From a virus: a DNA stretch of 64,000 nt. A program made the position numbers and the translations under genes. The stretch lies in the IMG/VR virus record IMGVR_UViG_3300003690_000003, positions 106,862 through 170,861 of that record; one strand, given 5' to 3'. The notes beneath the pieces were generated by a model. That model had not been told where the DNA came from, ran no database searches, and worked only from the letters and a program-made list of their open reading frames with translations. This document shows positions 3,501 through 40,339 of the stretch, in pieces; position 1 is the first letter of the stretch, and the number at the start of each line of letters is the position of its first letter.

Positions 3501-4531
3501 AACTTATCATTAACATTATTATATAAAGCTTCATATTTGGCGCCATTTACTACAGCTTCTAAATAATCAAAACCGAAATAAAGAGACAAATCATTATTTT
3601 CATTTTTCGAAAAATATAAAGGCGAAAGATAAGATGGTTTTTGTTTTCTAACTTTTTCTAAAGTTTTTAATCTATCGCGAACGGCCTTATTGGCGGTTGT
3701 CAAACCACTCAACTTATTAAAATCAAATGAATGTCTTTCTACTCTCGCAAGATTTCGCTGATCAACTATCTTAGAGTTAATAGTTTTCTGGACTCGGAGA
3801 AGATTTCCGGACTCTGAGCCGCCAGAGCCATCTCCAGTGCGCCAGCGCGCTCCCTGATCTTGGTGAACGTCGCCCACCCATAGGCTCAGGCTTGGATCAT
3901 CAGAGGAAACACTTGCTGGATAAAACAGATTAGTTTCTAAGTTGACTATTGAGTTTTTAATGACCAGTTCAGAAACAGTTTTGCCAAATAAAACATCCGC
4001 TGGATCAATAACGCTGGTATCATTATCTTCATTTGTATCAACTATGGGTACCGCAAAAATACTTAAGTACGGAGGAGCGGCGCCGGGTACCTCAAATGAT
4101 TTTCTAAAAAGCAAATCCGTACCGTACAGATCTCCATACTGCTGCGCCTGTGTTGTAGAAAGGCCCGCACTTAGAGCAACGTCCCCTAAAACCGCTTCCT
4201 GAAGAGGATAAACTCCCCGCGAAACTTTACCGTTGTCCTGATTTGAGTTTAGAAAATCTTTAAGTTTCGTACGGTCAGCATATATCGATATTGCCAAAGC
4301 ATCGTCACTAGTGACAACAACTAAAACATTTAACTTATTAAAAAATGACTCGCGAGTTCCTATTATAGAAGAATTGCTAGCAGCCGTAGTAAAATACTGC
4401 TTTAACACAAACTCCACATCTATCTTGAGCTTGTCGCCTCGATTATACAATGTAATATTTTTGATATAAACCGGAAATGTGTCTGGATCTTGACCGATAA
4501 TGCTAAGACTATGTTCTGGGATATGTGCCAT
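572..4531 (-). CDS. large hypothetical virion protein with poly-Ala/Thr linker and a small basic C-terminal domain
   Basis: 1319-aa ORF coupled to the upstream gene at 4531; structural context; low-complexity AAAAQAQQAAAA tract near C-terminus. Confidence 0.6.
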   Translation of the reverse strand: MAHIPEHSLSIIGQDPDTFPVYIKNITLYNRGDKLKIDVEFVLKQYFTTAASNSSIIGTRESFFNKLNVLVVVTSDDALAISIYADRTKLKDFLNSNQDNGKVSRGVYPLQEAVLGDVALSAGLSTTQAQQYGDLYGTDLLFRKSFEVPGAAPPYLSIFAVPIVDTNEDNDTSVIDPADVLFGKTVSELVIKNSIVNLETNLFYPASVSSDDPSLSLWVGDVHQDQGARWRTGDGSGGSESGNLLRVQKTINSKIVDQRNLARVERHSFDFNKLSGLTTANKAVRDRLKTLEKVRKQKPSYLSPLYFSKNENNDLSLYFGFDYLEAVVNGAKYEALYNNVNDKLTSCNMESIRVIRRRVNKPNVFNKLTGGDSPLRLFDKRVEVVGEPQRMDYNTSTGVMQYQIRDNSIKDITTGLYEYGVEITIEDKSRDKILQILTKPDPADPGIDLLIVQLERFLSTSLLSGNYNITTNRYTPLFIEKIKSGEALEYIDPATGAPRDVDYGAVSDMGPIEQSLTTTAAVAQGAIQQYSAALQNIIDFGGQPAIGGMGVITGTEGQELVSQTLARDANIRARQFGGGVITIVVGAPWSIAVNKYLTAMGFFFGPQTLQEQMNLFIAVNPLITGPSGIEFLIRLLRDFSSSLRSAIGVTKGSTTSMTQAPAAPTTGGKKIFTIRQFFLESIDTDALRPYGLDFLNTKRLLSVGSTTDAAVGGTIKRLTFDQWGRLVANETGKNDGVTQQGAIFLTPNFLRIPGRKPLDIFSDNNTTKNAIEEAFYEILSANINKNSPITFASTPGLKATNPALQHTNTRLIQNQNGIMHFNNCVATVFQNTPQNPIKNVFNTPATTEDLSANAEKGLDVSNLFSLNSEFITEPEREAAAEALSGSAAINLLQPGAGGSTSNLATQLVANVSQISNYLTQGDFFNGKPNPIVPALTTLSAGNFFVGGAGLPQVQAQVEQGNMAASLASSPALSSPAFANPATTPLPPPAPSEMAFINEVSDGNIDPGNTALIAARYGFVYIVEYMHAYMLGGVGSIVTAPVWYPLTLSVVQAADTGNRSLMCRLKRHKTHLANFDGLKMPIYNELFVIGGEGAVLELPNPSPTQAVAITYGVPSNIAANIDSFSDSIEFANSYDTDTRVGTNPTAAVAYAAQQAAAARATAAAAAQAQQAAAAAAAAAAAEATRVAAAAAATTTAAATMTTTTTGYAAAQQQAPTTPGPPPSLTGPERVQVYIAFYRWYKELLPNGKRRWQAGSHRPIAWPPPRSANSDRDRGVRTLKQLWFGWHTMPRRRNVITIYENQTGITIPTRVFEQNDNGQDY
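900..1100 (-). repeat. GCN-rich low-complexity tract encoding poly-Ala/Thr/Gln
   Basis: Runs of gcggca/gctgcg; encodes AAVAYAAQQAAAARATAAAAAQAQQAAAAAAAAAAAEATRVAAAAAATTTAAATMTTTTTG. Confidence 0.85.
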
Positions 4532-5577: not shown

Positions 5578-8500
5578 TTACCCTAGAAGGTTCAAGGCTC
5601 CTTGTGCTGCGTCGGCGGCAGCCTGATCAGCCAGGTCCTGCGCCGCTTCGACATCCTCAACCGATTCGCTGGAGGCATACTGTATTCCCATATCCATCTT
5701 AACTAGCTCCACAAGAGAGAAATAATCGTATGGCCAGTTGTAAGTATAAGGAGAATCAATGCTATTTGGAACTGTTGATAAATCATCAGTAAGCCCCGTT
5801 GCTTTATATTTGTTATAGTTACTCTTCGCTCTTCGTTTTACCTTAAATACCATCCAACGCATGTGCTCGCTAATCTGTCTCTGGTCACTATCGAAAAAGT
5901 CTTCTGCCAATAAGGAATGTTGGATTGTTGCCTCTCTAGCTTGTAGTGATTCTCCGCTAGTCTCAGGAGGTAAGTTTTGCCATATATCGGCTAAATCTTG
6001 TTGGGAAAACTTCTTTGTAAACTCAAAAACAAACATCACAAACGGATCGATTGTTTCTCGGCCCGTTTCGGTTGTTACAAAATCAAATTTTGGAGGGAAC
6101 ACATAGTCTTTCAAAGCTTTACAAATCTTTAGGACGTCAGGTTTCACTTGGACTTGAGTTTGCTGACCGGCAAGAATACGAATGGCGCCGTTTCTTTGGT
6201 GCTTGCTGAATCTATAGAACTTTCTGCGGCCGTCGAGGGCAATAGTAAATGGTACCGCTACGACCGCTTCGGATACCACTTTTGCATCGGTTATGGAGCC
6301 AATCCGCTTTACGACCGGAGAAAAACCAACTACATCTAGCAAAGATTGAACATTGTAATTTGCGTCGCCATTTGGTGAACTCTCGATGTGGCCTGGATCG
6401 GTTAAAGAGATAAAAATCCCCTCTCTCCCTTGACAGATGGCCCCCTTCTGATGCCACATCCCCTTGGTCGCTAAAAGGTCGCCGCTGTGAGCGGCCGCAG
6501 TCGGAGTGAGCGGCGTCGATGCTGACACGGCAGCAAAATTCAACACTGGCGTCTCAAACTTAGTTTGTATAAGCCATCGTTTTGTCGCGGTGGTCGTGTT
6601 GGCTATAATAGCGGTTACCTCTCTTGTCAAATCCACACTTGCACTAATCTGCATCGCCGCAAAGCGTTGTTTGGCGTCAGGGTCGTTCAGAAAAATCGTA
6701 TTTGTGCTCGCGTCAGGGCTTAAATATTCCCCAGACCTCTGGTAAGTTATCTCGCTATTAGAAAAAATATCAGCCAGCATAGGCTTCCCATCATATTGCG
6801 GTTTAAAAAGAATCGTTGCAACAGCCTCACCATCATAATAGGGAGGCGTTACGTGAACCCACGAAGGAATGTTGGCCGTTCCTTCGAAGCTGGCAGACAT
6901 CGGCCGTCCAAACCCGCTAGCACGATTATACATAGTAAAAATAGTCGTATCCGCAACTTGTTTAGAAAGTTGAGTTTGCGCTGGGCTGGCGGCGCCAATG
7001 ATAGATTGTTGAGTGCGGTTCAAGCTCACTTTCATGCCATAAACAGAACCAGATTTAACCTCTCTAAATTGATCTTCGCGGGAAGATTTAAATGATTTTA
7101 AACCAGTCTGGAAAAAGTCTACCGTCTCACAGACAAAATTATCTATAGCCAGTTCATAATTTTTAAGGCCATCTCCTGGCCATCTAACAGCATTCATACA
7201 GTTTGCCAACGTCGGATTGGTGGGATTACTAGCTAGGTGACCATAACTAGAAGAAATACTTCCCGAGCCCACTCCCCGATCAAATATATATCCTGCATTA
7301 AAGTTATCGTAGTTAGCAGCAGGGTTCGGGTCGTCGGCGGCGGGGACCTGAATGGGGGCGAGGATCCTAGTGCTCATATGCTGCACTGGATGTAGAAGCG
7401 CTTCAAAAGGAAGCTTGTGCATATAATAATAATATCCAGTTTCATCGACCAGGGTCGAGTAAGACGCCGAGGGGTTTAATGGAAGAAGACCTTTCCATCC
7501 ATAGTATTCCCCAAAATCATCTGAACCGGCGCGAGGACAGTTCGCCCCGCCGATCTGTTTCGTCTGAGACCGAGCTGAGTATTGAACATCGCGGCCGACG
7601 GTATGGCCGAGATAATCTCTGATATAGCCATCCCAAATGCTCCGAAGGATATAGTTGGAAACGCCAATTCCTGATTTAATCGTATTATACAAGATTCCCG
7701 GGCCGGCTAAGGGCTCAACAAAGGCACGAAATGCTGCTTTCGTCTCCATAAAATCAGACGTTATCCGGCCTCCACCCCTCTTGGGGAGACGACTACCCCC
7801 GGCCCAATCTGGACTAGTAGCCTCGTCGTCATTACCGCAGGCAGCCGCAGTACACTTCATAAACGGTCCATATGAAGATGAAAGTCCCTTGTAAGGCAAG
7901 AACTTAACTAACCCGGAGCATCGCAAAGCTAGCTTGTCTTTCTTCATAATATCGCCATTGACAAGAGATTTGTTATCGTAAGTCTCATCGACTACACTAA
8001 AAAATCTCATAAAATCAGAGTTGGAATAAACCTTGAAAAAATTATTCTCGGAGCTATCAGCTATAGAGGAACCAGTTAAGTCTAAAAAGCTATTATTGGG
8101 GGCCCAAAAGTCTTCAGCCGCCGTATTCAGATAATAATCCATCTGTTCACTAATTCTAAACTCGGGAACTATAGAATAATCTTTACCAATAAGTCTCAAA
8201 TTCTCACAATATTGATCATAAGTTAAATAAGGCTTTTTGCCGGCTTGTTCGGCAACCTGGTATTCGGCATCGCCTGGAAAGTTTGCTCTGGGGTTATTGG
8301 TATTAAAAGATGTGGGGGCTCCACCGTCACCGGCTGCGCCGGAGATACCAATCATACATCTTTGAGTGTACATACAACTGGCGGTAATATTTCCTTCACC
8401 CCACTGATCAAATCCAGAAAAACAATTTTGAAGAAGCCCAGAGCCACTAAGGGGATTCGAAGATAAGGTATCTTGAAAGTTTGTATCAGCTGTAGTGCCC

Positions 8501-11500
8501 GGGCTAGGATAGCCATGACCATCGAGAGGCCAAATACTGGCATTTAAGGCAGCGCCCGTAGGCGACATAGGAAGATCCACTTGACTACCGGCATATCCGC
8601 GTAGAGTGCGATTATTATTCCATATATTACTAATAGAATAGTTTACTCTCCGACGATTTCTATTAAGACCGGCATTCTTAGCTGCGGGATAAACTGTTTG
8701 TTTGTAGTTTACAAGTACTTTGTCTATATTTTCGAAAGGAGAGTTCTCAGTATTTCCAGCGGTATCTTTAAGAAGAAGCTCATTTAGACGATTGAAATAC
8801 AAATCTCCTCTCTTAGTGTCGAGTTTGAGATTATATCTATTTGTGAGTTCAATGTTTGCAAAGTAATCTACTTTATTAGCAAATGAATGATTATAAATCA
8901 ATGACTGATCGATAAACGTTACATTTCTATCATTATCGACCACTCTATTGGTGGAAACAAGAGTGTGAGTCATTACTTTGTGCTGGCTCCCTATAGGAGG
9001 TTCTATATAACTAACAATCTCGTTGCCTTTAAGACCGCGGACGCCAGTGGCCCGGTTTACTATAGTCGGGAGTGTTCTTACAGTTAGGCGGTTGTTCTTT
9101 CTTTGTTCTCGCACTAATGGGTGTGAGTGTGGGCCCGCTTGGATTTGTCGGAATGTAGGCCAGCCATAAGGGCCGTTGCGGTGAAGCATGAGAGCGTTGA
9201 ACATCTGCGCAGTGCCGGCGCCTTGGCCATAGGTGCCAGCAGCGGCTTCTCCAGTACCATCGTAAATAAACCCCTCAATATATCCAAAATCTTCAGCATT
9301 CCTATTGGCATATTGCGTCTCGATCGCATCGGACTGGGACGGGTAAAATAGTTTTACGCGCTGCTGTCCATTAAGTGTAGATAAAATATCCGTGTTTAAA
9401 GGAAATCCTAAAGTATTTTGGGACGCAGTAAGCGGATCCTTAAGAACAGTATTCAGACCCGCAAAATTTGGTCCATAAAACGGATATCCGCCGGCAGCTA
9501 CGGTCTTTCGTGTAGCGCCCCATCGGTACAGGGGGAACCACAGCGGATATGCCCCACCGGCCGGGCCCCTGACCGTGCAGCCAAAATCACTTGCCGAAAC
9601 AAACTGATCTTCTAGTTTGTAATGGAAAGGTCCATCATATCTTGAACCGTCGATAGAAAGATCTGAAGCCACTGCTCCATTAACAGTACCATTGTGACCA
9701 CCAATCTGATCGATTATCATCGTAGCCGAATCACCCCTTCCATCGCCCATGCGATACCAAGAGAGCAGACTGGCGGCCGCGCTGTGTTGTTTAAAATTCT
9801 TTGCTGTACCATTGTTATATGCCTCTTCGGCCTGGTTTGCTGATAGTTCAGTGTTCCAAATAGCCACTTCATCGATGTTGCCATCAAAGTAGCCGCCAGG
9901 GGCATCAAGTTCGACTCCTATGGTGCCGTTCTCGGTGGCGATGGCCGCGGGGTTATCCAGCTGGAAGCCGGCACTTGTAGTACGATCGACGCCGTCGAGA
10001 TACAGTTTCATACCGCCGAGAGAGACCCCTGCAGGATCGCCCCCCTCAAAGGTTGCCACGACATGGTGCCACTGATTATCATTTAAGTACGCAGTACCCG
10101 TCTTAATACGCCCGTTGCTGTCGCTACCATCAATTTGGAATCTAATCCCGTCGCTAGAGTTGGTATAAAGAGCACGACCATAAATACCAAAATGTATTAA
10201 CTGCTGATAGCTGCTCCAGTCCGCGGAATTAAACCACAAAGAAATCGAAAATGGCTTAGCGCTGGTGCCGCTTCCGCCAATAAGACTGTTCCAGGTAACG
10301 GCTGTTCCAATATCAATATAATCATTTGTATCATCAAAAAACATCGATGAACTGTTCTGAAGATATGCATAGCTTGTTAGACCATCATATCCATAAACCT
10401 TCGCGGTAGGAAGGAGTGAACCTGTAATCCATGCATATTGTCTATCGCTCTGCGGGATTTGATGAGTTACGTAAGCATTGTCATAGGTGTTGGTTTGATA
10501 GGTCGGCCATGAAACTCCTCCGGCGGCGAGGGCTTCGAAGCGCTTAGGAGCATGGGCGTGCTGAAGCACCAAGTCAGTTGCTAGCGAAGCGCTTGCGGCA
10601 CTACTGCCAATAAGGCCCATTTGATTATCAACGGAAGCGTTTGTATCGCCGGCGTAGGAGTTGAAACGATACCACGCTTGCAGACTCGTTGGAAGCGTCT
10701 CCTTGATATTAACAACAACTCCATTATTATATAAACTCTTCACTTCGGCTGCAGCCAGGACCTTTGACCAAACCGCAAAATTGCTAATATAAGCGTTGGT
10801 ATTCGCGGTTCCGCTATCTCTACTCCCAATAGTTAGGCCTTTTATAATCTGGCCAGAAGTACTCGAATTAGCTACGGTATCATTATCATTGACCCCATTA
10901 AGATAAATTGTGGCAGTTTCATCGCCGCCGTTGTCGCTCCCCCCGTTATAGGTTATAACCACATGATACCACCGATTGGTGGTAAGTGCTGTAGCGTTCA
11001 GGACGGTGACGCCTGAACTGTTGTTGCCAAAAAACTTTAAGAGACCGGTCGAATAAATATTCATATATCTCTGTACACCAAATGCCCAAACCTTGCTGCT
11101 GCTCCCGGGGAGAGTCGGAAGCCGCAGCCACAGAGAAACACTAAATGGCAATGCAGCGTTGCCCAAGCCACCTACAAGAGATGTCCAATCACTGGCGATG
11201 CCGGCCTCTACATAGCTTGTAGAACCATTGAAATAGCCAGCCCCCACAGGCGCCTCTTTGATCACACGCTTCGGATTTCGGTTCATCTTATTCCATGAGG
11301 GGAGGTTGGAATAAGCAACCTGAGTCAAACCATACTTGCGGATCCCCGAAGCCGAGCTGCTGGCCGCAACGCCGACTTCCACGCCAAAGCGACCAGAATG
11401 TAAAGTAGACCGCTGGTTGAGTCCGCGCGCATAATCAATCTGATCTACAACATGGATTGTACCGGATATGCTAGGATCGCCCGGAACCGAGCCGGTGCGT

Positions 11501-14500
11501 CCATAGTCTATAACTCCACGGTTGCGCCAAGGAAGTGCGTTATATACTGACTTCTCTTCGTGAGCGGGATCCATATAGCCGCGAGATGAGACATCCCAGC
11601 CACCAGGAGCATTAAACCTGTTAACTATAATAGACTGGTTAGAGTTTGCGCCGGTACGCGTAGGAAGGGTATATTCTAAGTTGCCCCCCACATTTTGTGT
11701 AAGATTTCCAAAGGAAGGAGAGGTCTTTTGTATAGCACTAGCTGGGAGGCTCTCAGGGGTTCCATTATGAGCGCCCACCTCATCGATCAGCGAGTTTACA
11801 CCAAGACTGTAGCTCGTTGAACCATCGGTGGCGTCATTGGCATTATCTCCGAGTTTCCACCAAGATATAAGATTTCCACTGGCGGCGGCAACAGTCTGTT
11901 TCAAATTAAGGCGCGCACCGTTATTATATATTTCGGTAACATGATCTTGAGAAAGTTCTTTTCTCCAAACGGCAGCATCACATATATGACCGAGCCATTC
12001 ATCCTGAACACCGGTGCCGCGGGCGCCTATAAAACATTCCATGCCGCTGATTTCAAGCGGAGCGCTAACAGTGTCTACCAGGTTGGTATCCAGTGTGCCA
12101 TTAACATATAATTTTTGTGCACCGGTGGTGTCGCCCTCAAATGTGGCCACAATATGCATCCACACTCCCGTTGTAATCGTACTTGTATTTACTTTACCCG
12201 TATCGACGCTGCCAGCAATAGTAAACTCAAAGCGGCCCGAGTCGCCAGTATCCCAATAAAGACGTCTATCTGAATTTGAAAAATCAAAAATGCGGTCATT
12301 GTCACTAATACTAGGATCTACTTTTACCCACGCTGAAAGGCTGAATGCTTTCGCGCTGCCCCCGGCGCCGCCAATCTCCGCTGCCCAAACCGTGTCCGCC
12401 CCAATCAAAACCCTATCGTCGGTGGTCTCACCCCCAAAATATACCGAATGAACTTCAGGAGTCTGCAGCGGGAATCGACCTCTCGTGGCCAAAGTCTCAG
12501 GATACAACGCAAAGTCAAACGACTGATCTTGGAAGAACGGATCATTAATGCTTCTTCCAGCGGTTTGTATAATCTGGTAGTTCTTCTGATAGTTTCCTAT
12601 CCTGCTATGCATTATTGTCCCGGACATTCTCTGGTTCAGAGAACCGGTTGTCATCAAGATATTCTTGATATTAACTGGACGTTTGGTGCCAACATTCCTC
12701 TTAAGATTGGCTTTTGGTCGATTAAATAAGTATGGAGGGCTTACTGCCGGCGAATCTTCTTGTGGGTATTGAGGGCCTACAATACCGAGGGCGCCCACCT
12801 CGGCGTCGGTGGCGGGAGGAAAGATCCGGCCACCGGTCCAAAGTCCTAATAGAAGCTTAAATCCTTCTGCGCGGTCGTCGGCGTTATCTAAACCACCACC
12901 GAGGGGATCGCCCTCCCGATGTGGCCTTGAACTAGAAACATTAAGCTCAATATGACGGTGTTCGCGGCCTCCTACAAACTTCTCAGTAAAAGGTCCCTGC
13001 ATTGGAACTTCATAGTCGGGCCCATAAACATCGGTATGTAGATTGGTTAACTGTACGCTTCCTGTAAATCGATTAACTATTTGGAGATTGTAACCGGTGT
13101 TAACTGATGAACTATATAAACTAAACGGCGCTATTAATTGACCGTCATTGGTTGTAAAATATGGAGAATTGGCGGGCTCTTTGTTGATAAATCCCATACC
13201 AAAGCCGAGTCTTCTCTTAACTCCCGGGTTTAAATTATCGGAAATATTTTGCCATTTCTCAACATCGTCTCCAAAAGCTAGCATTATATTAGCAGGAATA
13301 TTGGTACCAGGAACTCTTGGGCCGGCTGGATATGTTGCTGCATAAACCACGTCACGCTGTTTTTTGCGAGTATAGTTTACGCCACTACGAATAGTCCGCA
13401 GCTTCTTAAAACTATTCTCTATAGTAAATCTATAAGGGGTCGATTTTTTTCTATTACGAACAGACTCTGTTGTCTTAAGAACCATAGTCCGGCTATGATT
13501 GACGCTTGCAACTGAAGAACTAACAGGATTTAATGTCGTTCCCTCCATACCGGCATATTTTGGATACCTCTCTGCCATCTGCAGCCAATAAGTTGCATTA
13601 ACACTTTGTGAGAGTACTGTGGGGGGAGGCCCTGTGATAGGGGTGAGTATCGGATGGTGAGCGTACTTCCAGCCCGGGCTTAATGGAAGCACCGTTAAGA
13701 GAGGCCCGATGGGATCCGAGGGCTTCATTTCTAAAGTGGGGAACTTGTGTTGATATTTATCGCGCGCTAGTATGTGATTTTCCACCATTATTCGAATGCC
13801 ATCTGCAAAATCTGCAGATGCCGGTACCAACTGTTCAATCATCTTACCCAAAGAAGTATCAAACCATTTATAAAACTCAATATATTTATCTAAATCGGGT
13901 GTATTCTCAACGCGTTCAAAAAATAGCTCTCTCAGCTTTCCTAACCGTTTATATTGAGGACGATATTTATTAACTGGCTCTCCAATAAGATTGTTAAAAT
14001 CGACAATGGAACCAAATATATTAAGCATTTCCTCTGAAATGGTTTGATACATGCTCTTTTCGAATGCAAAAAAGAAAGTAATTGGACGTGATTCCCGTGT
14101 AAACTCAAGATCGTCTTGCGTGGTCAATACTTTAATCATGTCTTGAGCATAAAGATTCTCGGGCAAATTCTGTTTTGCCGAAACTAAGTAATCTACGTCT
14201 ACCACTTTAACAGAACTAACCGGGAATCCGTAACCTCGGCCGGTATGTTGAGCATTTAATATATTCCCTAATGCCCCGTAACGAGTAGTTTGAAGTGCTG
14301 TTGAACCAGAAGAAAAGTCTGCCACCACAAACTCTCCAGAAGCATCTGAGCCGGTTACCTGTTCAAAATCCCAGTTTAGTGCCAAAGTTTCTATTTGTGG
14401 AACTTCGAAATTGTTTTTACCATCCTGGAACACATAGGCACTTCTGTAGGGATGCAGCGCGCCATAGTTTTTAACATCTCTTGCGTGGGCTTTAATCGCA

Positions 14501-17500
14501 TCATTCTCTAAATAATCCAGCCAATATCTGCATGCTGCCATCTTAACATCCGACTTGGCTAAAACAGATCCAGTAAAGTTCTCAACATGAGCGCCCACAT
14601 ATACGCGCTTTGACCCCGTCATAAAACCATCCGGAACTTCAGATTGAAGTAAAGAACCGCTTACACTAAACTCATTTAATATTACATCAGCATCATACTG
14701 CACTCCATATAGCTCAACAATCCAGCTATGCGAAGTAGCATCGCTTCCGGTTACAAAATCCATCTCTGGATAGGTACTGGGACGTACGCGGACTGCTAAC
14801 GACCATTTGCTATTATCATAAACCTGTTCAAATAACGGACTTGTCAGGACAGAACCGGTTATACAGCCGCCAGAACTGGCGCTTAAAACGAACCTTGCAT
14901 TATTATCGCCAGCCGCTCCACGTGCGACAAAGACTTGGAAGTTAGTCCTGTCAAGAGAGTTCCAAGTTGTTTCATCCGAGAAGAGTATTTCGCTATCGAC
15001 TGCGGTATGAACTCCAAATATAGAGGCTGATACTTCAGTAAAGTTCTGAGTTGAATATAAATCGCTCGCTTGAGCGAACTTCTTAGGGAATAATACTTCG
15101 GCTTCTAATGTAAAAGCATAACCATTTGCGAGGAAGGCCCCCCCGGTAATATAATTTACTGAGTTGCTATTGGCGTTAGAAGCGTTTTGAAATACCAAAG
15201 AAGAAAAACGATCTGTGTGATTAAAGTCTATCAGACGATCACGTGATTCCGCCATCGTTGTATTATCACGAAGTTCATATTCTATATTGTCTCCATATAA
15301 GCTCAGCTTAACTACTTCTTCATCTATTCCAAAACAACGAACCAGATTTCTAAAACTTTTTTCAGTTCCCTTGGACTTATAAATGTGAATCAGATTATTA
15401 TAAATGTTCTGATATATCATACTCTTAATGTCAGTAAGAGATTTTACAAAAAGCCTATCTTCGCTTCTATCGGCTAGCTTTTCTAAAACGTCTGCGTCTA
15501 GAAATAACTCTGGAGAGAGTAAGCCGCGCGCGTCTAAAAGTCTATTACTAAAAATATTTGGTTTGTCGGATCCGCTAACATACCCAAAATCTTTAATGGT
15601 ATTAACGTTTTCTATCTGCAGTTGTAGAGAGTCAAAATACATCGCACAAATTTGTGTTAAGTTTTTTAATTCATCGCCACCCTTAGAATCTTCTTCCTGA
15701 ATCCAAGTGGGAAACATACCAAATAAAGACGAATTATTAGTATGATCGTAAACAGATCCGGAGGTTTCCAAAGAAGTTAATACGGCTTGGACCTCTGGAT
15801 GTGAGGGGTACAAAATAGGATCTCGGAACTCAGTGGCTGCAGCTGAAGCCGATACAATGGCAGAGCCCGTATTTCTAATAGCGGAATAGTATGTCGCATC
15901 GCGTGTCCAGGCACCGTTGGTCACGCGGCCTGAAAAGTCTAGAATAGTTAGGTCTTTACTTTCAACCCCCGTAATACCTTCATTGAACTTATAGTATACT
16001 CCCAAATCGGTATTTGCCAGGTCAGTGTTAGTACCCCCTCCCACTTGAGTAAACCAATAACGACCAATATCCTTCGAACTTCTTTGGGTCTTCCAATAGC
16101 GAAACTCGTCTAAAGAACCAGAAAGTTTACCGGCGCCGGCGGTGACGGTCGACGGTGTCGTTGTACCCGATGGAGCAGTTCTAAGGGCGCCTATATACGC
16201 CGCCATAGAGCCGCTAACCTTGTTGAGCCCAGTGGTACCTAGCAAAAGCTGCTGTTCAAAATCGCCATCAACATAAAATCTAGAGGTGATGCCGGCAGAT
16301 GCTGACTTAAAAGTAAATGCATAGTGATGCCAGTTTCCATCAGCCACTGATGCGGCGATAAAAGTATTCGTAGGTATCAACCCAGAACTATAAGTTAAAC
16401 CAGCCGGATCAAGTTGAATAGTTGGAAGAGTCGTTGTGGCCGCAGGAGTCATATGATCCGTTCCAATCTGATCATAAATTGCCGAATTTGTGTCTCTTGA
16501 GCCATCGCCCATTCGCCACCAAGAAATAATATTTGACACGTCAGAGCGCTGGCCTAAGTTTGTTGGCTCCCCGCTGTTGTAAAGTGCAGTAACTTCGGCT
16601 GAACTTAGTACCACCTTCCAAACACTTACCTCGTCTATATAACCGGTAAAAGCCTGATCCTTCTCTTCGTCGTTTCCTAAGAAAGCACCATAAGTAGAGA
16701 TAGTACCCCAATCATTCCTGGCCGTATTATAGCTACTATTAAGAGTCTTAACCACACCATCGACATAAACGATTGCTGTTTCTGCCGGACTCGTAGCGGC
16801 GTTTCCATCATATGTTACAACTATGTGATGCCATGTATTATCACTAATTGCATTATTGTTAGTTCGATTATTTAAATTGGTGCCGGCGGTGTCGGCATAA
16901 ACTTGAATTCTATTGGCATGACTGATGGCGACCCTAAAATCATCATTCCCTAGGGTAAAAATCCTATCTGGTGTACTGCCGCCGCCGTCCGCGGTTTTGT
17001 ATACCCAAGCCGAAAAAGTGATTCTCCTGTTCGTGAGTGCCGTATTCCATGTTCCGGCTGAGCGCGTGCCGCCCAATCTAGCCGTAATATCACTATCGCC
17101 GCTAAATAGCACCCCCTTGGGCGCTGCTGTCACAGCTGACGCGTCCACAAAGCCCATCGTCCCGGACATCATTGTTAGAAGGAAGGGACTCGTTCCATCA
17201 TCGGAACCGGTTAAATCAATTCTAAAACGACCATAATCTGCGCTTGATGAGTTGGCATAGTTCCAAAGATCAAAAATAACCTCTTTTCCGGTATTGTTAG
17301 TCGTATCAAACGCATCCTTTTTCAGCCAAAACTCTACAGATGTCCCATTGGTTAAATCAAGTTCTAGATTTGATTCTCTATTATCCGCCGGCGACCATAT
17401 ATTAGCCGGAGCGGTACGAGGGACCGTGCTTTTAAGATGAGGGCCTCCGTAAAGGCTAATATATTCAAGATCTTCTGGAAGACCATAGCCATCAACTATA

Positions 17501-17874
17501 CTTCCGTCACGATCGCCCCATCCACCATAAGAAAAGTTAATATATCCTGTAGTTCGTGGATATCTCTCTTCAAAAACGTATAAATCTACATATGAAGAAC
17601 TATTTTCCCAGCTAAGTCTCTCATATAAAGACCCATCATAAGGATAGGCCTTATAAATATTTCTTACTGCGTCCCCATAATATTGTTTAGCAGACCCATA
17701 TCGCGCAAAGTTTTCAGGTTTTGAATAATCAATAGGAGGTAGATAGCGGCTTTCTTTAACAATGTCTGCGTCGTGATAGTTAACTGATTCTACATCAGCG
17801 CCTACACTTTCTTCTGTTCTGTTTGTTAAAGATTTAGCAATCGAAATCTTACTAAATAGATCTTTAAGACTCAC
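5578..17874 (-). CDS. giant baseplate wedge-like protein (gp7/GpI-type motif) with multiple LamG/concanavalin-A-like domains
   Basis: 4098 aa; IYKSKGTEKSFRNLVRCFG wedge motif (~15330-15390); LamG signatures (FSxSxW, WHHxVxT, LYxDG, IDEVxxW, LxSWWRMGD) repeated at least four times; downstream of gp6 and gp25. Confidence 0.75.
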   Translation of the reverse strand: MSLKDLFSKISIAKSLTNRTEESVGADVESVNYHDADIVKESRYLPPIDYSKPENFARYGSAKQYYGDAVRNIYKAYPYDGSLYERLSWENSSSYVDLYVFEERYPRTTGYINFSYGGWGDRDGSIVDGYGLPEDLEYISLYGGPHLKSTVPRTAPANIWSPADNRESNLELDLTNGTSVEFWLKKDAFDTTNNTGKEVIFDLWNYANSSSADYGRFRIDLTGSDDGTSPFLLTMMSGTMGFVDASAVTAAPKGVLFSGDSDITARLGGTRSAGTWNTALTNRRITFSAWVYKTADGGGSTPDRIFTLGNDDFRVAISHANRIQVYADTAGTNLNNRTNNNAISDNTWHHIVVTYDGNAATSPAETAIVYVDGVVKTLNSSYNTARNDWGTISTYGAFLGNDEEKDQAFTGYIDEVSVWKVVLSSAEVTALYNSGEPTNLGQRSDVSNIISWWRMGDGSRDTNSAIYDQIGTDHMTPAATTTLPTIQLDPAGLTYSSGLIPTNTFIAASVADGNWHHYAFTFKSASAGITSRFYVDGDFEQQLLLGTTGLNKVSGSMAAYIGALRTAPSGTTTPSTVTAGAGKLSGSLDEFRYWKTQRSSKDIGRYWFTQVGGGTNTDLANTDLGVYYKFNEGITGVESKDLTILDFSGRVTNGAWTRDATYYSAIRNTGSAIVSASAAATEFRDPILYPSHPEVQAVLTSLETSGSVYDHTNNSSLFGMFPTWIQEEDSKGGDELKNLTQICAMYFDSLQLQIENVNTIKDFGYVSGSDKPNIFSNRLLDARGLLSPELFLDADVLEKLADRSEDRLFVKSLTDIKSMIYQNIYNNLIHIYKSKGTEKSFRNLVRCFGIDEEVVKLSLYGDNIEYELRDNTTMAESRDRLIDFNHTDRFSSLVFQNASNANSNSVNYITGGAFLANGYAFTLEAEVLFPKKFAQASDLYSTQNFTEVSASIFGVHTAVDSEILFSDETTWNSLDRTNFQVFVARGAAGDNNARFVLSASSGGCITGSVLTSPLFEQVYDNSKWSLAVRVRPSTYPEMDFVTGSDATSHSWIVELYGVQYDADVILNEFSVSGSLLQSEVPDGFMTGSKRVYVGAHVENFTGSVLAKSDVKMAACRYWLDYLENDAIKAHARDVKNYGALHPYRSAYVFQDGKNNFEVPQIETLALNWDFEQVTGSDASGEFVVADFSSGSTALQTTRYGALGNILNAQHTGRGYGFPVSSVKVVDVDYLVSAKQNLPENLYAQDMIKVLTTQDDLEFTRESRPITFFFAFEKSMYQTISEEMLNIFGSIVDFNNLIGEPVNKYRPQYKRLGKLRELFFERVENTPDLDKYIEFYKWFDTSLGKMIEQLVPASADFADGIRIMVENHILARDKYQHKFPTLEMKPSDPIGPLLTVLPLSPGWKYAHHPILTPITGPPPTVLSQSVNATYWLQMAERYPKYAGMEGTTLNPVSSSVASVNHSRTMVLKTTESVRNRKKSTPYRFTIENSFKKLRTIRSGVNYTRKKQRDVVYAATYPAGPRVPGTNIPANIMLAFGDDVEKWQNISDNLNPGVKRRLGFGMGFINKEPANSPYFTTNDGQLIAPFSLYSSSVNTGYNLQIVNRFTGSVQLTNLHTDVYGPDYEVPMQGPFTEKFVGGREHRHIELNVSSSRPHREGDPLGGGLDNADDRAEGFKLLLGLWTGGRIFPPATDAEVGALGIVGPQYPQEDSPAVSPPYLFNRPKANLKRNVGTKRPVNIKNILMTTGSLNQRMSGTIMHSRIGNYQKNYQIIQTAGRSINDPFFQDQSFDFALYPETLATRGRFPLQTPEVHSVYFGGETTDDRVLIGADTVWAAEIGGAGGSAKAFSLSAWVKVDPSISDNDRIFDFSNSDRRLYWDTGDSGRFEFTIAGSVDTGKVNTSTITTGVWMHIVATFEGDTTGAQKLYVNGTLDTNLVDTVSAPLEISGMECFIGARGTGVQDEWLGHICDAAVWRKELSQDHVTEIYNNGARLNLKQTVAAASGNLISWWKLGDNANDATDGSTSYSLGVNSLIDEVGAHNGTPESLPASAIQKTSPSFGNLTQNVGGNLEYTLPTRTGANSNQSIIVNRFNAPGGWDVSSRGYMDPAHEEKSVYNALPWRNRGVIDYGRTGSVPGDPSISGTIHVVDQIDYARGLNQRSTLHSGRFGVEVGVAASSSASGIRKYGLTQVAYSNLPSWNKMNRNPKRVIKEAPVGAGYFNGSTSYVEAGIASDWTSLVGGLGNAALPFSVSLWLRLPTLPGSSSKVWAFGVQRYMNIYSTGLLKFFGNNSSGVTVLNATALTTNRWYHVVITYNGGSDNGGDETATIYLNGVNDNDTVANSSTSGQIIKGLTIGSRDSGTANTNAYISNFAVWSKVLAAAEVKSLYNNGVVVNIKETLPTSLQAWYRFNSYAGDTNASVDNQMGLIGSSAASASLATDLVLQHAHAPKRFEALAAGGVSWPTYQTNTYDNAYVTHQIPQSDRQYAWITGSLLPTAKVYGYDGLTSYAYLQNSSSMFFDDTNDYIDIGTAVTWNSLIGGSGTSAKPFSISLWFNSADWSSYQQLIHFGIYGRALYTNSSDGIRFQIDGSDSNGRIKTGTAYLNDNQWHHVVATFEGGDPAGVSLGGMKLYLDGVDRTTSAGFQLDNPAAIATENGTIGVELDAPGGYFDGNIDEVAIWNTELSANQAEEAYNNGTAKNFKQHSAAASLLSWYRMGDGRGDSATMIIDQIGGHNGTVNGAVASDLSIDGSRYDGPFHYKLEDQFVSASDFGCTVRGPAGGAYPLWFPLYRWGATRKTVAAGGYPFYGPNFAGLNTVLKDPLTASQNTLGFPLNTDILSTLNGQQRVKLFYPSQSDAIETQYANRNAEDFGYIEGFIYDGTGEAAAGTYGQGAGTAQMFNALMLHRNGPYGWPTFRQIQAGPHSHPLVREQRKNNRLTVRTLPTIVNRATGVRGLKGNEIVSYIEPPIGSQHKVMTHTLVSTNRVVDNDRNVTFIDQSLIYNHSFANKVDYFANIELTNRYNLKLDTKRGDLYFNRLNELLLKDTAGNTENSPFENIDKVLVNYKQTVYPAAKNAGLNRNRRRVNYSISNIWNNNRTLRGYAGSQVDLPMSPTGAALNASIWPLDGHGYPSPGTTADTNFQDTLSSNPLSGSGLLQNCFSGFDQWGEGNITASCMYTQRCMIGISGAAGDGGAPTSFNTNNPRANFPGDAEYQVAEQAGKKPYLTYDQYCENLRLIGKDYSIVPEFRISEQMDYYLNTAAEDFWAPNNSFLDLTGSSIADSSENNFFKVYSNSDFMRFFSVVDETYDNKSLVNGDIMKKDKLALRCSGLVKFLPYKGLSSSYGPFMKCTAAACGNDDEATSPDWAGGSRLPKRGGGRITSDFMETKAAFRAFVEPLAGPGILYNTIKSGIGVSNYILRSIWDGYIRDYLGHTVGRDVQYSARSQTKQIGGANCPRAGSDDFGEYYGWKGLLPLNPSASYSTLVDETGYYYYMHKLPFEALLHPVQHMSTRILAPIQVPAADDPNPAANYDNFNAGYIFDRGVGSGSISSSYGHLASNPTNPTLANCMNAVRWPGDGLKNYELAIDNFVCETVDFFQTGLKSFKSSREDQFREVKSGSVYGMKVSLNRTQQSIIGAASPAQTQLSKQVADTTIFTMYNRASGFGRPMSASFEGTANIPSWVHVTPPYYDGEAVATILFKPQYDGKPMLADIFSNSEITYQRSGEYLSPDASTNTIFLNDPDAKQRFAAMQISASVDLTREVTAIIANTTTATKRWLIQTKFETPVLNFAAVSASTPLTPTAAAHSGDLLATKGMWHQKGAICQGREGIFISLTDPGHIESSPNGDANYNVQSLLDVVGFSPVVKRIGSITDAKVVSEAVVAVPFTIALDGRRKFYRFSKHQRNGAIRILAGQQTQVQVKPDVLKICKALKDYVFPPKFDFVTTETGRETIDPFVMFVFEFTKKFSQQDLADIWQNLPPETSGESLQAREATIQHSLLAEDFFDSDQRQISEHMRWMVFKVKRRAKSNYNKYKATGLTDDLSTVPNSIDSPYTYNWPYDYFSLVELVKMDMGIQYASSESVEDVEAAQDLADQAAADAAQGALNLLG

Positions 17875-17879
17875 TTTTG

Positions 17880-19421
17880 TTACCCTTCCTCAACCCTAAA
17901 CTTAAATTCTTCTGACTGTTGGACCCAGTCCTTTGATGAATCATTATAGTAAACGAACTTTAGACCATAAGAATAGCCGCCTTCTAATAATGACATGTTT
18001 AAATCAAAATAGTTTCCTGATACATCATAAGAAAGATAAGAATATTTGGTACTGCCAGTTCCATATGGAATCACATTAAGATCGTCTACTACCCGGAAAA
18101 CACGATAAGATGCGCTTACAATCGTTTCATTAGGAATAATCGCTGTCGCTACACTATAAATGGAATCATTTATTGCCTTTGGACGTACATAAAGTCTAAA
18201 CCTGGCTGTCTCACTTCGGATATAACCATCCTTAAGGTTGGATATTGCAGTTACATATTGGGTCGATGGCGCATTATCATAAGCCACAAGGGTTTTTGGA
18301 GCAACGGAGCCAGTAAAAAGTTCAGTAGTCCCATCATGCCATACATCGTAAAGCTGTGTTAAAGTACCTGTGGCGGCAAACGATGCTGAGTATATGCCGG
18401 TTTTGTACCATCCTCCAGTCACATTGATATCCAAATTGGCCGCGACATCCCCTCCAACTGGAAGTGCTAACTTAGAGCCCGCAGGGGCTGTTGAACCCGA
18501 ATATAAGCTAAGCAGTATTGTTCCGGTTCCTACCGATGGAATGTCAACGAGGCGCCCTCGAACATAGTTATATAAGTATAAAGTATTAAGATTGTCTGTT
18601 GCGGTGGCTAGAGAGCTGCTATAATAAAAGCTACCGCGGTTATCTTTAACACGTGAGTCCCAGCGCGCCTCTAACACCGGGCGCTTGAAGAAAAACTCTG
18701 AAGATCTTGCAAAAAACTTTTTAGTATAGTAGGATTCAGTAGCTCCCACAGTATTTTGAATAAGGCCACCGGTTGTATTAATCCCCGTAGAACTTGAAAA
18801 ATATGCTTCCTGACTAGCTGTAAGTCGCACACTGAGGCCATAATTATCATATTCACCGCCGGACTCGCCGACTATCCAGTTTTCTACGATTTCAGAAATA
18901 TCTATTTCTAGATCTTCATAGCCATTCGGGAAAGAAGCATTATAGGTTGGAGCGCTCAAATAATCGCCACCTACCGTGGTCCACGCGCCAACCTTGCCTC
19001 TGCGCATCCAGTTCGAACCACTATTATCATAAGTGCGATCAGTATACTCTTCCATATCTAAACCAACGCCTTCTTCCCAAGAAGATGAGATGGGTTCTAT
19101 TACCAGATTAAATTGGCGAGGCAACGTATAAGCATGCCGAGCGTTATACATTCTTAGATAAAAACTTACACTCCCGCTAGCAGGAATGGTGCCCGCTGTT
19201 CGATCTGTCGAAATCGTCGACACTGGAAACTCAATTATGGTGCGTGTTAATTCTTGGGAAAGCCCATCCGATCCGGAGGCTTCACCATAAATAGAAAAAA
19301 CCTCTACTACATCGGCCATTCCCATATTAGACCCCGTTCCTCTCTGACTTTCCAGCAAAGAAGACTTAAAGGCATTTGTTATAGTATTATCTTTATTAGC
19401 CGTATAACGCTTAATAGCCAT
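17880..19421 (-). CDS. DNRLRE-type (carbohydrate-binding-like) virion protein
   Basis: 513 aa; SSSWEEGVG...GSNW...WTTVGGDY and IDISEIVENW...NYGL...RPVLEARW pattern typical of DNRLRE domains; lies between gp6 and the wedge protein. Confidence 0.55.
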   Translation of the reverse strand: MAIKRYTANKDNTITNAFKSSLLESQRGTGSNMGMADVVEVFSIYGEASGSDGLSQELTRTIIEFPVSTISTDRTAGTIPASGSVSFYLRMYNARHAYTLPRQFNLVIEPISSSWEEGVGLDMEEYTDRTYDNSGSNWMRRGKVGAWTTVGGDYLSAPTYNASFPNGYEDLEIDISEIVENWIVGESGGEYDNYGLSVRLTASQEAYFSSSTGINTTGGLIQNTVGATESYYTKKFFARSSEFFFKRPVLEARWDSRVKDNRGSFYYSSSLATATDNLNTLYLYNYVRGRLVDIPSVGTGTILLSLYSGSTAPAGSKLALPVGGDVAANLDINVTGGWYKTGIYSASFAATGTLTQLYDVWHDGTTELFTGSVAPKTLVAYDNAPSTQYVTAISNLKDGYIRSETARFRLYVRPKAINDSIYSVATAIIPNETIVSASYRVFRVVDDLNVIPYGTGSTKYSYLSYDVSGNYFDLNMSLLEGGYSYGLKFVYYNDSSKDWVQQSEEFKFRVEEG

Positions 19422-21226
19422 TAAACCACGCTTCCTTGTATATCTACGTTTGGATACTTGATCTCAAATGCTGAATCCCTATCAGCTTTTATATATCTTC
19501 CATCGTTTGAAAGGTGTGCATCCAAATCAAAGTTAAAATTCGAATAAGGGTCACCGCTTTTTGCTATAAGCTTCACATCTAAAACGTCTATTACGTTGGG
19601 TACTTTTTGAAGTTCTTTATAAATATCTCCAATATAAAGGTCTTCGCCAATGTCGTACGTTGTATTGATAAAGTAGGTTCTCAATCTACTGGTGGCCGTA
19701 GCTAAAGCATTGTATTTATTCTCTTCGTAATCAGTTATTATAACAAATTCAACTCCAAAATTAACCACTTGAGCATCTAAAATATCAATCGTATCATTTA
19801 TTACTTTATAACGCGACAGCCATGTTTTTAAATTTTGTTTAATGGTTGAATTAGTATTCACTAAAAATCCATTATTATCTTCCGATAAAATATACATATT
19901 AAGATTTCTTTTGAAGGAATCAAAATCACGTAAAATCGTACATCTTTTAACAGCTCCAAAACTAGGAGGCATTGCATAAGAGATTGCCTGATAGTCCTGG
20001 ATGGTCACGGCCCTGTTTTGAGTTGCATAATAACTGAACACGCGCTGTTTGATTTCTTCTGTTGAGGGAAGTGATACGTCACCTAGGATGGGCTCCTCAT
20101 TATTAACTTCTAGAGAAGATAAAACAGTATTTCTTTTCGCTCCGTTAAGAGATCCTTCGTTTTCAAACTGTAAAATAGGAATAGCAACTGTCGTAAGAGT
20201 ATTGGCTGCAATATTAACATCACTTGCGTCATTAACTCGATAGTGAATCGTCAAGGTTGTATTTGCCGGCGCAATGCCAAACTTGTCGGTATCAGTGAGA
20301 TTAGTAGGATCAAACTCCTTGTCTGTGGTATAATCGCGGCCGTGGAGTTTCAATGTAATCTTGCTTGGATCTAAAACAGATGCATTTGTTAGCTCAGTAT
20401 CGCTCCCGTATCCAAACTGTAAAAATGCGTCGGTTCTGCTTCTCTCTAAAGTAAAACGTCGAATAGCTGGCACAGCCTTTAAAATCGAAGGGACACTATT
20501 TTTATCTGCATTGTTGTTTCTGATTGCTTTATAGATTACTTCTTGGGCCAGATGTTCTACTTCAAAATATTCATGACCCTCTGAATCTGATACCGACATA
20601 ATCTCCGTTACAGCCGGTGAGGCAAGCGGAACTTTCAGAAACCTTTGGTATTCGCCAATAGTTTTGGCCTCGCGTTCCATTCGGCCAGAAATAACCTTTC
20701 CGGAAGCTTTAGCCGCAAACCCAGTAGGTGAATTAGTAGTTCCATCAACGGTTGTGATTATAATTTCATTTCCGGCGGCTCCAAAATAAATATCTTCAGT
20801 GAGAGTAAATGTCTTGCCGCCCACGGAAGTAAACTGACTACTGGCTCGAAGAGTCGGATAATAATCTGTATCTGGCGCACCTAAAGAGTCGGCCGGTACT
20901 GTAACATAAAACTGTGCTGTTCCAACAGAAGTTGCACTATCGGTATACTTCCAACCTAATTGGCGCGCTAGCCGTACTACATTATCATATTCTAAAGCAC
21001 TATCCAAAAAAGACTCATTCACTTGATAATCCAAATAAAATGATAAAATATCTCCTATATAAGAAACCGAATCTAATACGAGCGATCCAAAGCCTGCCTC
21101 ATTGAAATCCTTAAAACTCTCAGGATAATAACGCTTTGCGTATCCCACCAGTTCCGTTTTAATCGATTCAAAATCCCGACTAGTATAGTTTACTGCTTTT
21201 ATTTTCTTTCTAGAGTTTGAAGGCAT
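19421..21226 (-). CDS. baseplate wedge subunit (T4 gp6 / baseplate J-like)
   Basis: NYTSRDFESIK...SYIGDILSFYLDYQVNESFLDSA...VVRLARQLG N-terminus and QNRAVTIQDY motif are characteristic. Confidence 0.9.
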   Translation of the reverse strand: MPSNSRKKIKAVNYTSRDFESIKTELVGYAKRYYPESFKDFNEAGFGSLVLDSVSYIGDILSFYLDYQVNESFLDSALEYDNVVRLARQLGWKYTDSATSVGTAQFYVTVPADSLGAPDTDYYPTLRASSQFTSVGGKTFTLTEDIYFGAAGNEIIITTVDGTTNSPTGFAAKASGKVISGRMEREAKTIGEYQRFLKVPLASPAVTEIMSVSDSEGHEYFEVEHLAQEVIYKAIRNNNADKNSVPSILKAVPAIRRFTLERSRTDAFLQFGYGSDTELTNASVLDPSKITLKLHGRDYTTDKEFDPTNLTDTDKFGIAPANTTLTIHYRVNDASDVNIAANTLTTVAIPILQFENEGSLNGAKRNTVLSSLEVNNEEPILGDVSLPSTEEIKQRVFSYYATQNRAVTIQDYQAISYAMPPSFGAVKRCTILRDFDSFKRNLNMYILSEDNNGFLVNTNSTIKQNLKTWLSRYKVINDTIDILDAQVVNFGVEFVIITDYEENKYNALATATSRLRTYFINTTYDIGEDLYIGDIYKELQKVPNVIDVLDVKLIAKSGDPYSNFNFDLDAHLSNDGRYIKADRDSAFEIKYPNVDIQGSVV

Positions 21227-21242
21227 TTTATATCTCCCTATA

Positions 21243-21638
21243 TTAGATTCCAGATTCGCTTTCTAGTATATCTACCCGGTCAGTATCTTGAAGGGGAATG
21301 ATTGTATATCTAACAGAAACTCCCAAAACATTAGGATTGCCTCTCATATCATCACCACTGTGAAAATCAACATGGTTTACCGTAACAAAAGGCATATATT
21401 TCTTTACCTGAGCGTTAATCTTTTCACTTATTTCTCCATAGGTGGCTCCTGTCATAGGTTCAAAAAAATAAGATCGCAAACCGATACCAAAATGAATATC
21501 CATAACGCGCTCGCCTTGGTTTGTTAGCAGTAAATTTTTCAAGTTTTGCTTAATCATTTCTTTATAGGTGATATTCAAATTATAAAAACCAAACTGATCA
21601 TCATATCGAAGAGGAAATTTTGGTGACAAGCCTTTCAT
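21243..21638 (-). CDS. baseplate gp25/GPW-like sheath initiator
   Basis: IKQNLKNLLLTNQGERVMDIHFGIGLRSYFFEP motif; adjacent to gp6. Confidence 0.9.
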   Translation of the reverse strand: MKGLSPKFPLRYDDQFGFYNLNITYKEMIKQNLKNLLLTNQGERVMDIHFGIGLRSYFFEPMTGATYGEISEKINAQVKKYMPFVTVNHVDFHSGDDMRGNPNVLGVSVRYTIIPLQDTDRVDILESESGI

Positions 21639-40009: not shown

Positions 40010-40339
40010 CTACTTTTTAAAAAACTCACTATCAAGAATTCCTTTATCATCAACATATATATCGGCGGCCGGCTTACCTAGAAAGAGAGCATGATATTTA
40101 AGACCCCACTCGTTTAGTTGATTTTCTGTAAAAGAATACATTTGTTTGTATGCCTCAATTTGATTGTTACTGCTTCTTCCCATCCCCCGCGCAGTCAAAA
40201 AAAATATTGTATGGCCATTCTGATATAGATCATTTACTTTCTGGATACGCTTCCGATCGGGAATTGAATTAATGTAATCGCTCCCGTTTGTCTGACAGAT
40301 TGTTCCATCGATATCAAAAACATAAGTTATTTTATCCAC
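40010..40339 (-). CDS. capless HAD phosphatase (EcbF/BcbF-like capsule-biosynthesis type)
   Basis: YVFDIDGTIC, LTARGM, LGKPAADIYVDDKG. Confidence 0.85.
   Translation of the reverse strand: MDKITYVFDIDGTICQTNGSDYINSIPDRKRIQKVNDLYQNGHTIFFLTARGMGRSSNNQIEAYKQMYSFTENQLNEWGLKYHALFLGKPAADIYVDDKGILDSEFFKK

Follow-up and report, generated by a model that had tools for sequence, protein, structure and literature searches.

A serine-requiring tripeptide in virion proteins of a T4-like phage clade as a putative O-glycosylation sequon

Why should two neighboring structural proteins of an uncultured marine T4-like phage carry one short, serine-ending tripeptide several times more often than expected from their composition? 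The question arises in the last 64 kb of the 170,861-bp IMG/VR record IMGVR_UViG_3300003690_000003 (completeness estimate 94%), the whole of which stretch is referred to here as the window, and it concerns the tripeptide [ST][GA]S in baseplate-operon proteins of 513 and 4098 amino acids (aa). The original prediction made for this locus regarded the tripeptide as a selected surface motif and as a plausible O-glycosylation acceptor for glycosyltransferases (GTs) of the phage, analogous to the Ser heptosylation of autotransporters by AAH/TibC, with a beta-turn role as the alternative. Based on motif statistics, homologue comparisons, structural models, and gene distribution, we propose that an extended form of the motif, hydrophobic-[ST]-[G/A, sometimes S]-S-hydrophobic, is a putative O-glycosylation sequon for a pair of family-4 glycosyltransferases (GT4) acting on outward-facing virion proteins of a T4-like clade, a reading that we hold to be evenly balanced on the sequence evidence.

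Motif excess and conservation in the two focal proteins

All genes treated here are carried on the minus strand. The two focal genes are:

5578-17874, minus strand: giant baseplate-operon protein of 4098 aa, with 34 [ST][GA]S sites
17880-19421, minus strand: all-beta virion protein of 513 aa with a carbohydrate-binding module (CBM)-like jelly roll and Ig/FN3-like domains, with 10 sites

From composition, 10.1 sites are expected in the giant protein (Poisson p=3e-9; 0 of 2000 shuffles as high) and 1.9 in the 513-aa protein (p=3e-5). The counts in the original prediction (34 and 10, with none in the neighboring gp6-like protein) were exact. The excess was also kept when residues were shuffled within windows of 20-200 aa: across 2000-3000 shuffles none reached the observed count, with the single exception of the 513-aa protein in 20-aa windows (fraction 0.0003). 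A first-order Markov model raised the expectation to 16.3 for the large protein (p=8e-5) and to 4.8 for the small one (p=0.02). Over-representation in each protein thus outlasts correction for composition, shuffling, and Markov modelling, marginally so for the 513-aa protein under the Markov model.

The excess is specific to residue order, with S[ST][GA], [GA]S[ST], [GA][ST]S, and [ST]S[GA] all at expectation, and position 3 requires Ser rather than Thr, [ST][GA]T being found 10 times against 8.6 expected. Together, the window shuffles and permutation controls rule out local S/G/T-rich composition as the cause. Post-hoc choice of the motif was addressed by ranking all tripeptides in both proteins, in which TGS came first, SAS third, and SGS fourth; SAS is enriched on a par with SGS, and TGS alone of the single tripeptides passes Bonferroni correction (3.6e-7 x 8000). 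Codon choice differs freely among the 44 sites, which places the signal at the protein level and rules out a DNA-level cause. Across the 112 sites in the enriched proteins of this genome (see below), the preceding residue is hydrophobic in 58% of cases (background 31%), which agrees with the original observation that most sites follow a hydrophobic residue; position +1 is hydrophobic at 45% of sites and is never Pro.

No match to the 513-aa protein was obtained by tblastn against 50,697 deposited phage records; more than 5000 metagenomic homologues were found, many of them in Tara Oceans data. Searches of both focal proteins with PHROGs and Pfam gave LamG in the giant protein as the sole family match. 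The motif excess is maintained among homologues of both proteins. For the 513-aa protein it averages 5.8x in 120 close homologues and 4.4x in 150 representatives of the family at 41-61% identity, six of the 10 sites are retained in >80% of 117 homologues, and Ser also replaces Gly/Ala at position 2. For the giant protein the mean over 120 homologues is 3.86x (range 2.67-5.99), made up of TGS at 4.9x, SGS at 4.1x, SAS at 3.4x, TAS at 2.9x, and [ST]SS at 2.2x, with [ST][GA]T at just 1.4x. At the conserved sites of the giant protein (aa 660-1250), the position-3 Ser is near-invariant, position 1 alternates between S and T, and position 2 between G, A, and S. When six giant proteins (35-46% identity) were aligned, 88 of 130 motif columns were private to one sequence, a count that misalignment inflates, while each protein had 33-37 sites against 8-10 expected. 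The combination of many private columns with steady totals indicates that motif density is kept beyond the conserved positions.

Virion location and structural context

In an open reading frame (ORF) screen of the whole genome, in which proteins with p<0.01 and at least 3 sites were taken as enriched, eight proteins passed, and a ninth (443 aa, 7 sites vs. 2.6) fell just under the cut-off and was grouped with them. The set comprises the two focal proteins, the tail sheath, and further proteins of unassigned family, four of which (208, 443, 913, and 133 aa) are encoded beside head genes and two (460 and 366 aa) beside fiber genes; the remaining ORFs, pooled, have 47 sites against 49.7 expected. 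By BLAST the enriched proteins are mutually non-homologous apart from the 366- and 460-aa pair (u366/u460), which rules out a single duplicated domain as the source of the enrichment. In the sheath, all nine sites lie inside a lineage-specific insert (aa 143-643) and none in the conserved core (aa 711-997), which holds the Pfam sheath domains (aa 711-989); by analogy with T4 gp18, the insert should point outward. The sheaths of three near-complete relatives have 8-9 sites.

The baseplate operon reads, in order of transcription, 2526-aa protein, gp25, gp6, 513-aa protein, 4098-aa protein, and then proteins of 345 and 1319 aa. Its upstream members are free of the motif, and gp6 served as an internal negative control:

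19421-21226, minus strand: gp6-like baseplate wedge protein, 0 sites
21243-21638, minus strand: gp25-like baseplate wedge protein, 0 sites
21734-29314, minus strand: 2526-aa protein upstream of gp25, family unassigned, 0 sites (3.3 expected)

The gp6 proteins of this phage and five relatives together have no [ST][GA]S (~5.7 expected in total), and homologues of the 2526-aa protein in three relatives are likewise at zero. The inner baseplate components (gp6 and the ~2500-aa protein) may therefore avoid the motif, with the qualification that these sequences are homologous and hence not independent. By comparison of gp6, the nearest cultured relatives are Microcystis phage Mel-JY01 and Flavobacterium phage vB_FspM_immuto (hereafter immuto), at ~31% identity. 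The post-gp6 baseplate and fiber genes of both phages show a strong excess, and their sheaths have 7 (Mel-JY01) and 8 (immuto) sites.

The 513-aa protein was modelled with a mean predicted local distance difference test (pLDDT) score of 91.7 as an all-beta protein with CBM-like and Ig/FN3-like parts, and DSSP places its sites in strands (aa 345, 370, and 436), at strand ends (aa 49, 201, and 308), and in loops (aa 134 and 455). The region aa 660-1250 of the giant protein, which holds 13 sites, was modelled at pLDDT 71; three highly conserved sites fall in low-confidence coil, and nine lie in a well-modelled ConA/pentraxin/LamG-like beta-sandwich (aa ~870-1240). Foldseek returned generic CBM/Ig-like matches for the 513-aa model and ConA/pentraxin-like matches for aa 870-1240 of the giant, with no T4 baseplate protein among the matches listed for either model.

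The four Laminin_G_3 modules inserted in the giant protein (aa 273-428, 1841-1979, 2242-2379, and 2527-2681) provide a comparison within one polypeptide. Their 588 aa hold 0 sites, an outcome with probability P(0)=0.003 at the site density found elsewhere in the giant, and in 130 LamG modules across 120 homologues the ratio is 1.26 inside the modules versus 4.08 outside. The modules had been described beforehand as nearly motif-free, which holds; the single site then counted in them does not fall within the modules as delimited by Pfam. The first module (aa 273-428) seems to be nested in another, split LamG-like domain (giant aa ~150-603). The profile is matched by the C-terminal half of this outer domain at aa 507-603, and aa ~150-250 probably make up its N-terminal half; 4 motif sites lie in the split outer domain and none in the nested module. 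A second same-fold comparison is available in LR756508, an uncultured 484-kb member of the clade without clear motif excess. Its sheath inserts are homologous to those of the phage studied here (30-32% identity) and contain 1 and 0 sites. The two LR756508 sheath paralogues (825 and 828 aa) are encoded in tandem (LR756508.1, 202451-209917).

These observations bear on a purely structural or assembly role, according to which the motif would be an amphipathic beta-strand with two hydroxyls facing out and a small residue facing in, serving folding, strand capping, or subunit packing with nothing attached. Several features are as such a role would predict: sites hold their positions strongly in the 513-aa protein and likewise across aa 660-1250 of the giant, the hydrophobic residues at -1 and +1 and the lack of Pro at +1 form a strand-like pattern, about half of the modelled sites are in strands or at strand ends, and alpha-helical or Ala-rich virion proteins are motif-free. 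However, the inserted LamG modules and the LR756508 sheath inserts indicate that the fold tolerates absence of the motif, and the motif is found in non-homologous proteins, in loops, and in low-confidence coil. Position 3 excludes Thr, a residue usually favored in strands, and in variable regions sites turn over with density retained. Replacement of Gly by Ala or Ser means that no positive-phi turn is needed. The beta-turn alternative of the original prediction is poorly supported for the same reason, in that a type I'/II' turn is not indicated where Gly is dispensable and sites are spread over strands, strand ends, loops, and coil. Fold tolerance, Thr exclusion, and the use of Ala/Ser for Gly together weaken a purely structural or beta-turn explanation, which we consider unlikely while according it appreciable weight.

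Phages outside the clade provide further evidence against a structural role. The structural genes of T4 show no excess (19 observed vs. 33 expected overall), and neither do the giant, beta-rich virion proteins of the cyanomyoviruses P-RSM6 and S-CAM3; the motif is thereby ruled out as a generic trait of beta-rich phage tail proteins. Across the T4 structural and neighboring ORFs at 74-123 kb, 9 [ST][GA]S were counted against 23.4 by composition. The description of [ST][GA]S as a selected surface motif is well supported: the excess recurs in 120-150 homologues of each focal protein, is limited to some of the virion proteins and, within them, to lineage-specific inserts, and is missing from domains of the same fold elsewhere.

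Candidate glycosyltransferases and their distribution

The window encodes a candidate enzyme pair for the motif, followed by a sugar-gene island:

45955-47214, minus strand: GT4a, a 419-aa GT-B family-4 glycosyltransferase with intact EX7E; clade-conserved core gene and candidate priming transferase
44711-45958, minus strand: GT4b, a second GT4 of 415 aa with intact EX7E; orthologues adjoin GT4a in immuto and Mel-JY01, with none in LR756508
47225-47986, minus strand: PD-(D/E)XK nuclease, the conserved upstream neighbor of GT4a in this phage, immuto, Mel-JY01, and LR756508
34198-44714, minus strand: sugar-nucleotide and glycosyltransferase island, with contents unlike those of immuto and Mel-JY01; putative glycan elaboration

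Each of the five near-complete relatives has a GT4a at 60-65% identity, and among the 50,697 phage records its homologues at a minimum of 27% identity and 75% coverage were confined to the gp6-related clade (Mel-JY01, immuto, and LR756508) and RM378. The order PD-(D/E)XK-GT4a-GT4b, followed by differing sugar genes, is syntenic in this phage, immuto, and Mel-JY01, all three of which are strongly enriched in the motif. LR756508 has the PD-(D/E)XK and GT4a genes; GT4b was found nowhere in its 484 kb, and its place in a sheath tree (see below) suggests that GT4b and the motif may have been lost together. In the cultured phage RM378, which has GT4a, several ORFs show strong excess, some of them for baseplate and fiber proteins. 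The search of phage records gave no homologue of GT4a from T4, P-RSM6, or S-CAM3, which lack motif excess. The siphoviruses TJE1 and S-CBS4, with distant GT4 homologues (23-25% identity), show no clear excess, one S-CBS4 fiber being at 2x.

The island genes encode an NTP-transferase/kinase, a C-methyltransferase, a 590-aa GT9-like/Glyco_trans_1_2 protein, a transaldolase, a cupin, a class II aldolase, a PfkB kinase, and an RpiB-cytidylyltransferase. The cluster as a whole holds at least three GT genes in addition to sugar-nucleotide enzymes; no transporter family was matched among the cluster proteins scanned, several cluster ORFs being without family assignment. Within the island, the transaldolase, cupin, class II aldolase, PfkB kinase, and RpiB-cytidylyltransferase fusion form a compact block (40327-43848) that could yield a nucleotide sugar of higher carbon number in the absence of a GmhA-type isomerase. 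Beside the PD-(D/E)XK gene, a 244-aa protein (47987-48721) resembles at aa 198-236 the Pfam family of the anthrax lethal factor N/C domain, with a score below threshold (24.3 bits, cut-off 27.4), and the match probably reflects no more than a metalloprotease-like motif. At 48999-50339 is a 446-aa PhoH with a PIN domain fused at its N-terminus.

When motif density is compared with GT content across relatives, the GT4 pair travels with the motif and the GT9-like gene does not. The latter (38231-40003, the 590-aa protein above) would be the candidate enzyme for Ser heptosylation in the manner of AAH/TibC, using a phage-made donor of the ADP-heptose type: at aa 414-532 Pfam detects GT9 (heptosyltransferase), weakly at 24.0 bits (cut-off 22), the neighboring transaldolase, PfkB kinase, and RpiB-cytidylyltransferase could supply a heptose-type nucleotide sugar, and enzymes of the BAHT family, whose members share >50% homology, likewise act on Ser and not Thr (PMC4358343). 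However, the gene is missing from four to five of the five near-complete relatives, which have equal motif density (10-12 sites vs. ~1.9 expected in 513-aa homologues; 33-37 vs. 8.3-9.6 in giant homologues), and this, under the refuting condition set by the original prediction, uncouples the motif from the GT9-like gene. In the 50,697 phage records the protein had no homologue other than one short fragment, and none was found in immuto, Mel-JY01, or RM378. A phmmer search against all PDB chains at E<=1 gave only a chance hemerythrin match, that is, no sequence similarity to solved structures and no homology of the TibC/AAH type. Furthermore, the Ser residues mapped in TibA precede GG or AA, which is another context (PMC4358343). 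The proposed analogy with AAH/TibC heptosylation is thus not upheld; as a clade-wide explanation heptosylation is largely refuted by the sequence comparisons, it appears very improbable as the role of this enzyme, and the 590-aa protein would at most add outer sugars in this strain. What stands of the original proposal is that the motif is a plausible acceptor for phage GTs, with the GT4 pair in place of a heptosyltransferase.

The co-distribution of GT4 pair and motif could also be a coincidence of clade membership, with the pair and the island acting on phage DNA or on host envelope glycans. Glycosylation of DNA and alteration of host serotypes are both established activities of phage GTs (as cited in PMC12619734), the conserved neighbor of the GT4 pair is a PD-(D/E)XK nuclease, and the association derives from few independent events. 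Against this, DNA glycosylation becomes less probable in that this phage, Mel-JY01, and RM378 yielded no ThyA-type hydroxymethylase, and LR756508 is without both GT4b and motif excess; we regard this explanation as improbable. A reader of the motif other than a GT deserves similarly little weight, whether it be another modification (phosphorylation or acylation), a chaperone, an assembly factor, or some component of the host surface. The selected density and near-invariant Ser would suit any Ser-directed reader, and the GT4 pair is linked to the motif solely by correlation. However, no protein kinase or acyltransferase candidate was seen to co-vary with the motif, kinase-like domains were found only in sugar-activation contexts, and the GT4 pair is the only gene set with demonstrated co-distribution.

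A proposed glycan coat and its known analogues

Glycosylation by the GT4 pair would proceed as follows. Late in infection, the soluble, conserved GT4a and GT4b would attach the first sugars to a motif hydroxyl in the cytoplasm, the likely target being the near-invariant position-3 Ser. The adjoining sugar-gene island, which varies between phages, would then make and add further sugars, resulting in a strain-variable glycan coat on the baseplate, fibers, sheath inserts, and head or neck decorations, where it may act in shielding, adsorption, or stability.

Several findings weigh against this proposal. Strong positional conservation marks the 513-aa protein as well as the conserved core of the giant, which a structural role would predict just as well, and many sites lie inside beta-strands with hydrophobic flanks. 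The 1319- and 1191-aa proteins are presumably exposed and are not enriched, and in RM378 neither the sheath nor the capsid protein is enriched, and its GT4b is doubtful (no Pfam match) even though GT4a is present. The GT4-motif association amounts to about one clade and one possible co-loss, and the sheath tree behind that co-loss is poorly resolved, placing LR756508 beside Mel-JY01 with support of just 80/83. The GT4 pair could, moreover, serve a different substrate.

The 1319-aa protein (572-4531), encoded downstream of the giant, contains 21 AAA tripeptides against 1.6 expected, has no family match, and may be an Ala-rich helical fiber.

The clade in question consists of thousands of marine metagenomic relatives together with cultured Flavobacterium and Microcystis phages. 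For this clade as a whole, we put forward, as somewhat short of an even prospect, that an abundant group of aquatic T4-like phages uses a dedicated protein O-glycosylation code, in which a hydrophobic-[ST]-[GAS]-S-hydrophobic sequon would be read by the GT4 pair and a hypervariable island would diversify the glycan in the manner of an O-antigen locus. If so, glycan coats would be predictable from sequence across very abundant marine and freshwater phages, and the large, variable sugar-gene islands, apparently without export genes, would be explained. Such coats would bear on adsorption, on particle stability, on grazing or enzymatic decay, and on strain-level diversity of phage surfaces. As immuto and Mel-JY01 are in culture, the sequon hypothesis is directly testable. 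To our knowledge, virion glycosylation by phage enzymes has been documented chemically in only a few mycobacteriophages, and an acceptor sequon is known for no phage; neither this motif nor glycosylation in this clade was found described in the literature.

TibC and AAH are soluble GT-B enzymes that act in the cytoplasm and hyper-glycosylate many Ser, and not Thr, residues of a folded surface protein rich in beta structure (PMC4358343). The system proposed here would resemble theirs in GT-B enzymes, in the preference for Ser over Thr, and in beta-rich targets; it differs in that the GT9-like protein is not conserved with the motif, no autotransporter partner is present, and TibA is modified at Ser with GG or AA.

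GtfA/GtfB of Gram-positive bacteria, encoded by two neighboring genes of the GT4 type, prime serine-rich-repeat adhesins in the cytoplasm on Ser in S-x-S sequences (PMC6973325). The priming pair is conserved, the number of additional GTs varies by strain to give varied glycans, and GtfB is a chaperone (PMC6973325). This arrangement is paralleled in the phages by two adjoining conserved GT4 genes followed by a variable GT and sugar island. However, Pfam shows no DUF1975 in the phage GT4s, just Glycos_transf_1 and GT4-conflict C-terminal lobes; both retain EX7E, and the match to a GtfA structure is insignificant (E ~0.6). Also unlike the adhesins, the phage sites are single tripeptides scattered in folded beta-rich proteins and not long tandem repeats, and accessory Sec export appears to be lacking. 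Given the lack of DUF1975, two GT4s that both look catalytic, and dispersed sites, we claim membership neither in the GtfA/GtfB type nor in the mycobacteriophage type described below. By sequence, the best solved-structure match of both phage GT4s is the virus-encoded, GT4-type B736L of a chlorovirus (PDB 3oy2; E 6e-8 and 1e-4), from a eukaryotic algal virus and with similarity confined to the C-terminal GT-B lobe.

Mycobacteriophages, which are siphoviruses, use their own GTs to glycosylate structural proteins (Freeman et al., 2023, as cited in PMC12619734), and the glycans are carried on the C-terminal ends of tail-tube and capsid subunits (PMC12619734). The common element would be phage-encoded GTs acting on the phage's own structural proteins; in the T4-like myoviruses the proposed acceptor is a defined tripeptide, with candidate sites scattered over baseplate, fiber, sheath-insert, and head or neck proteins. 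By analogy, GtfA/GtfB priming would be the nearest mechanistic counterpart of the proposed system, and mycobacteriophage virion glycosylation the nearest biological one.

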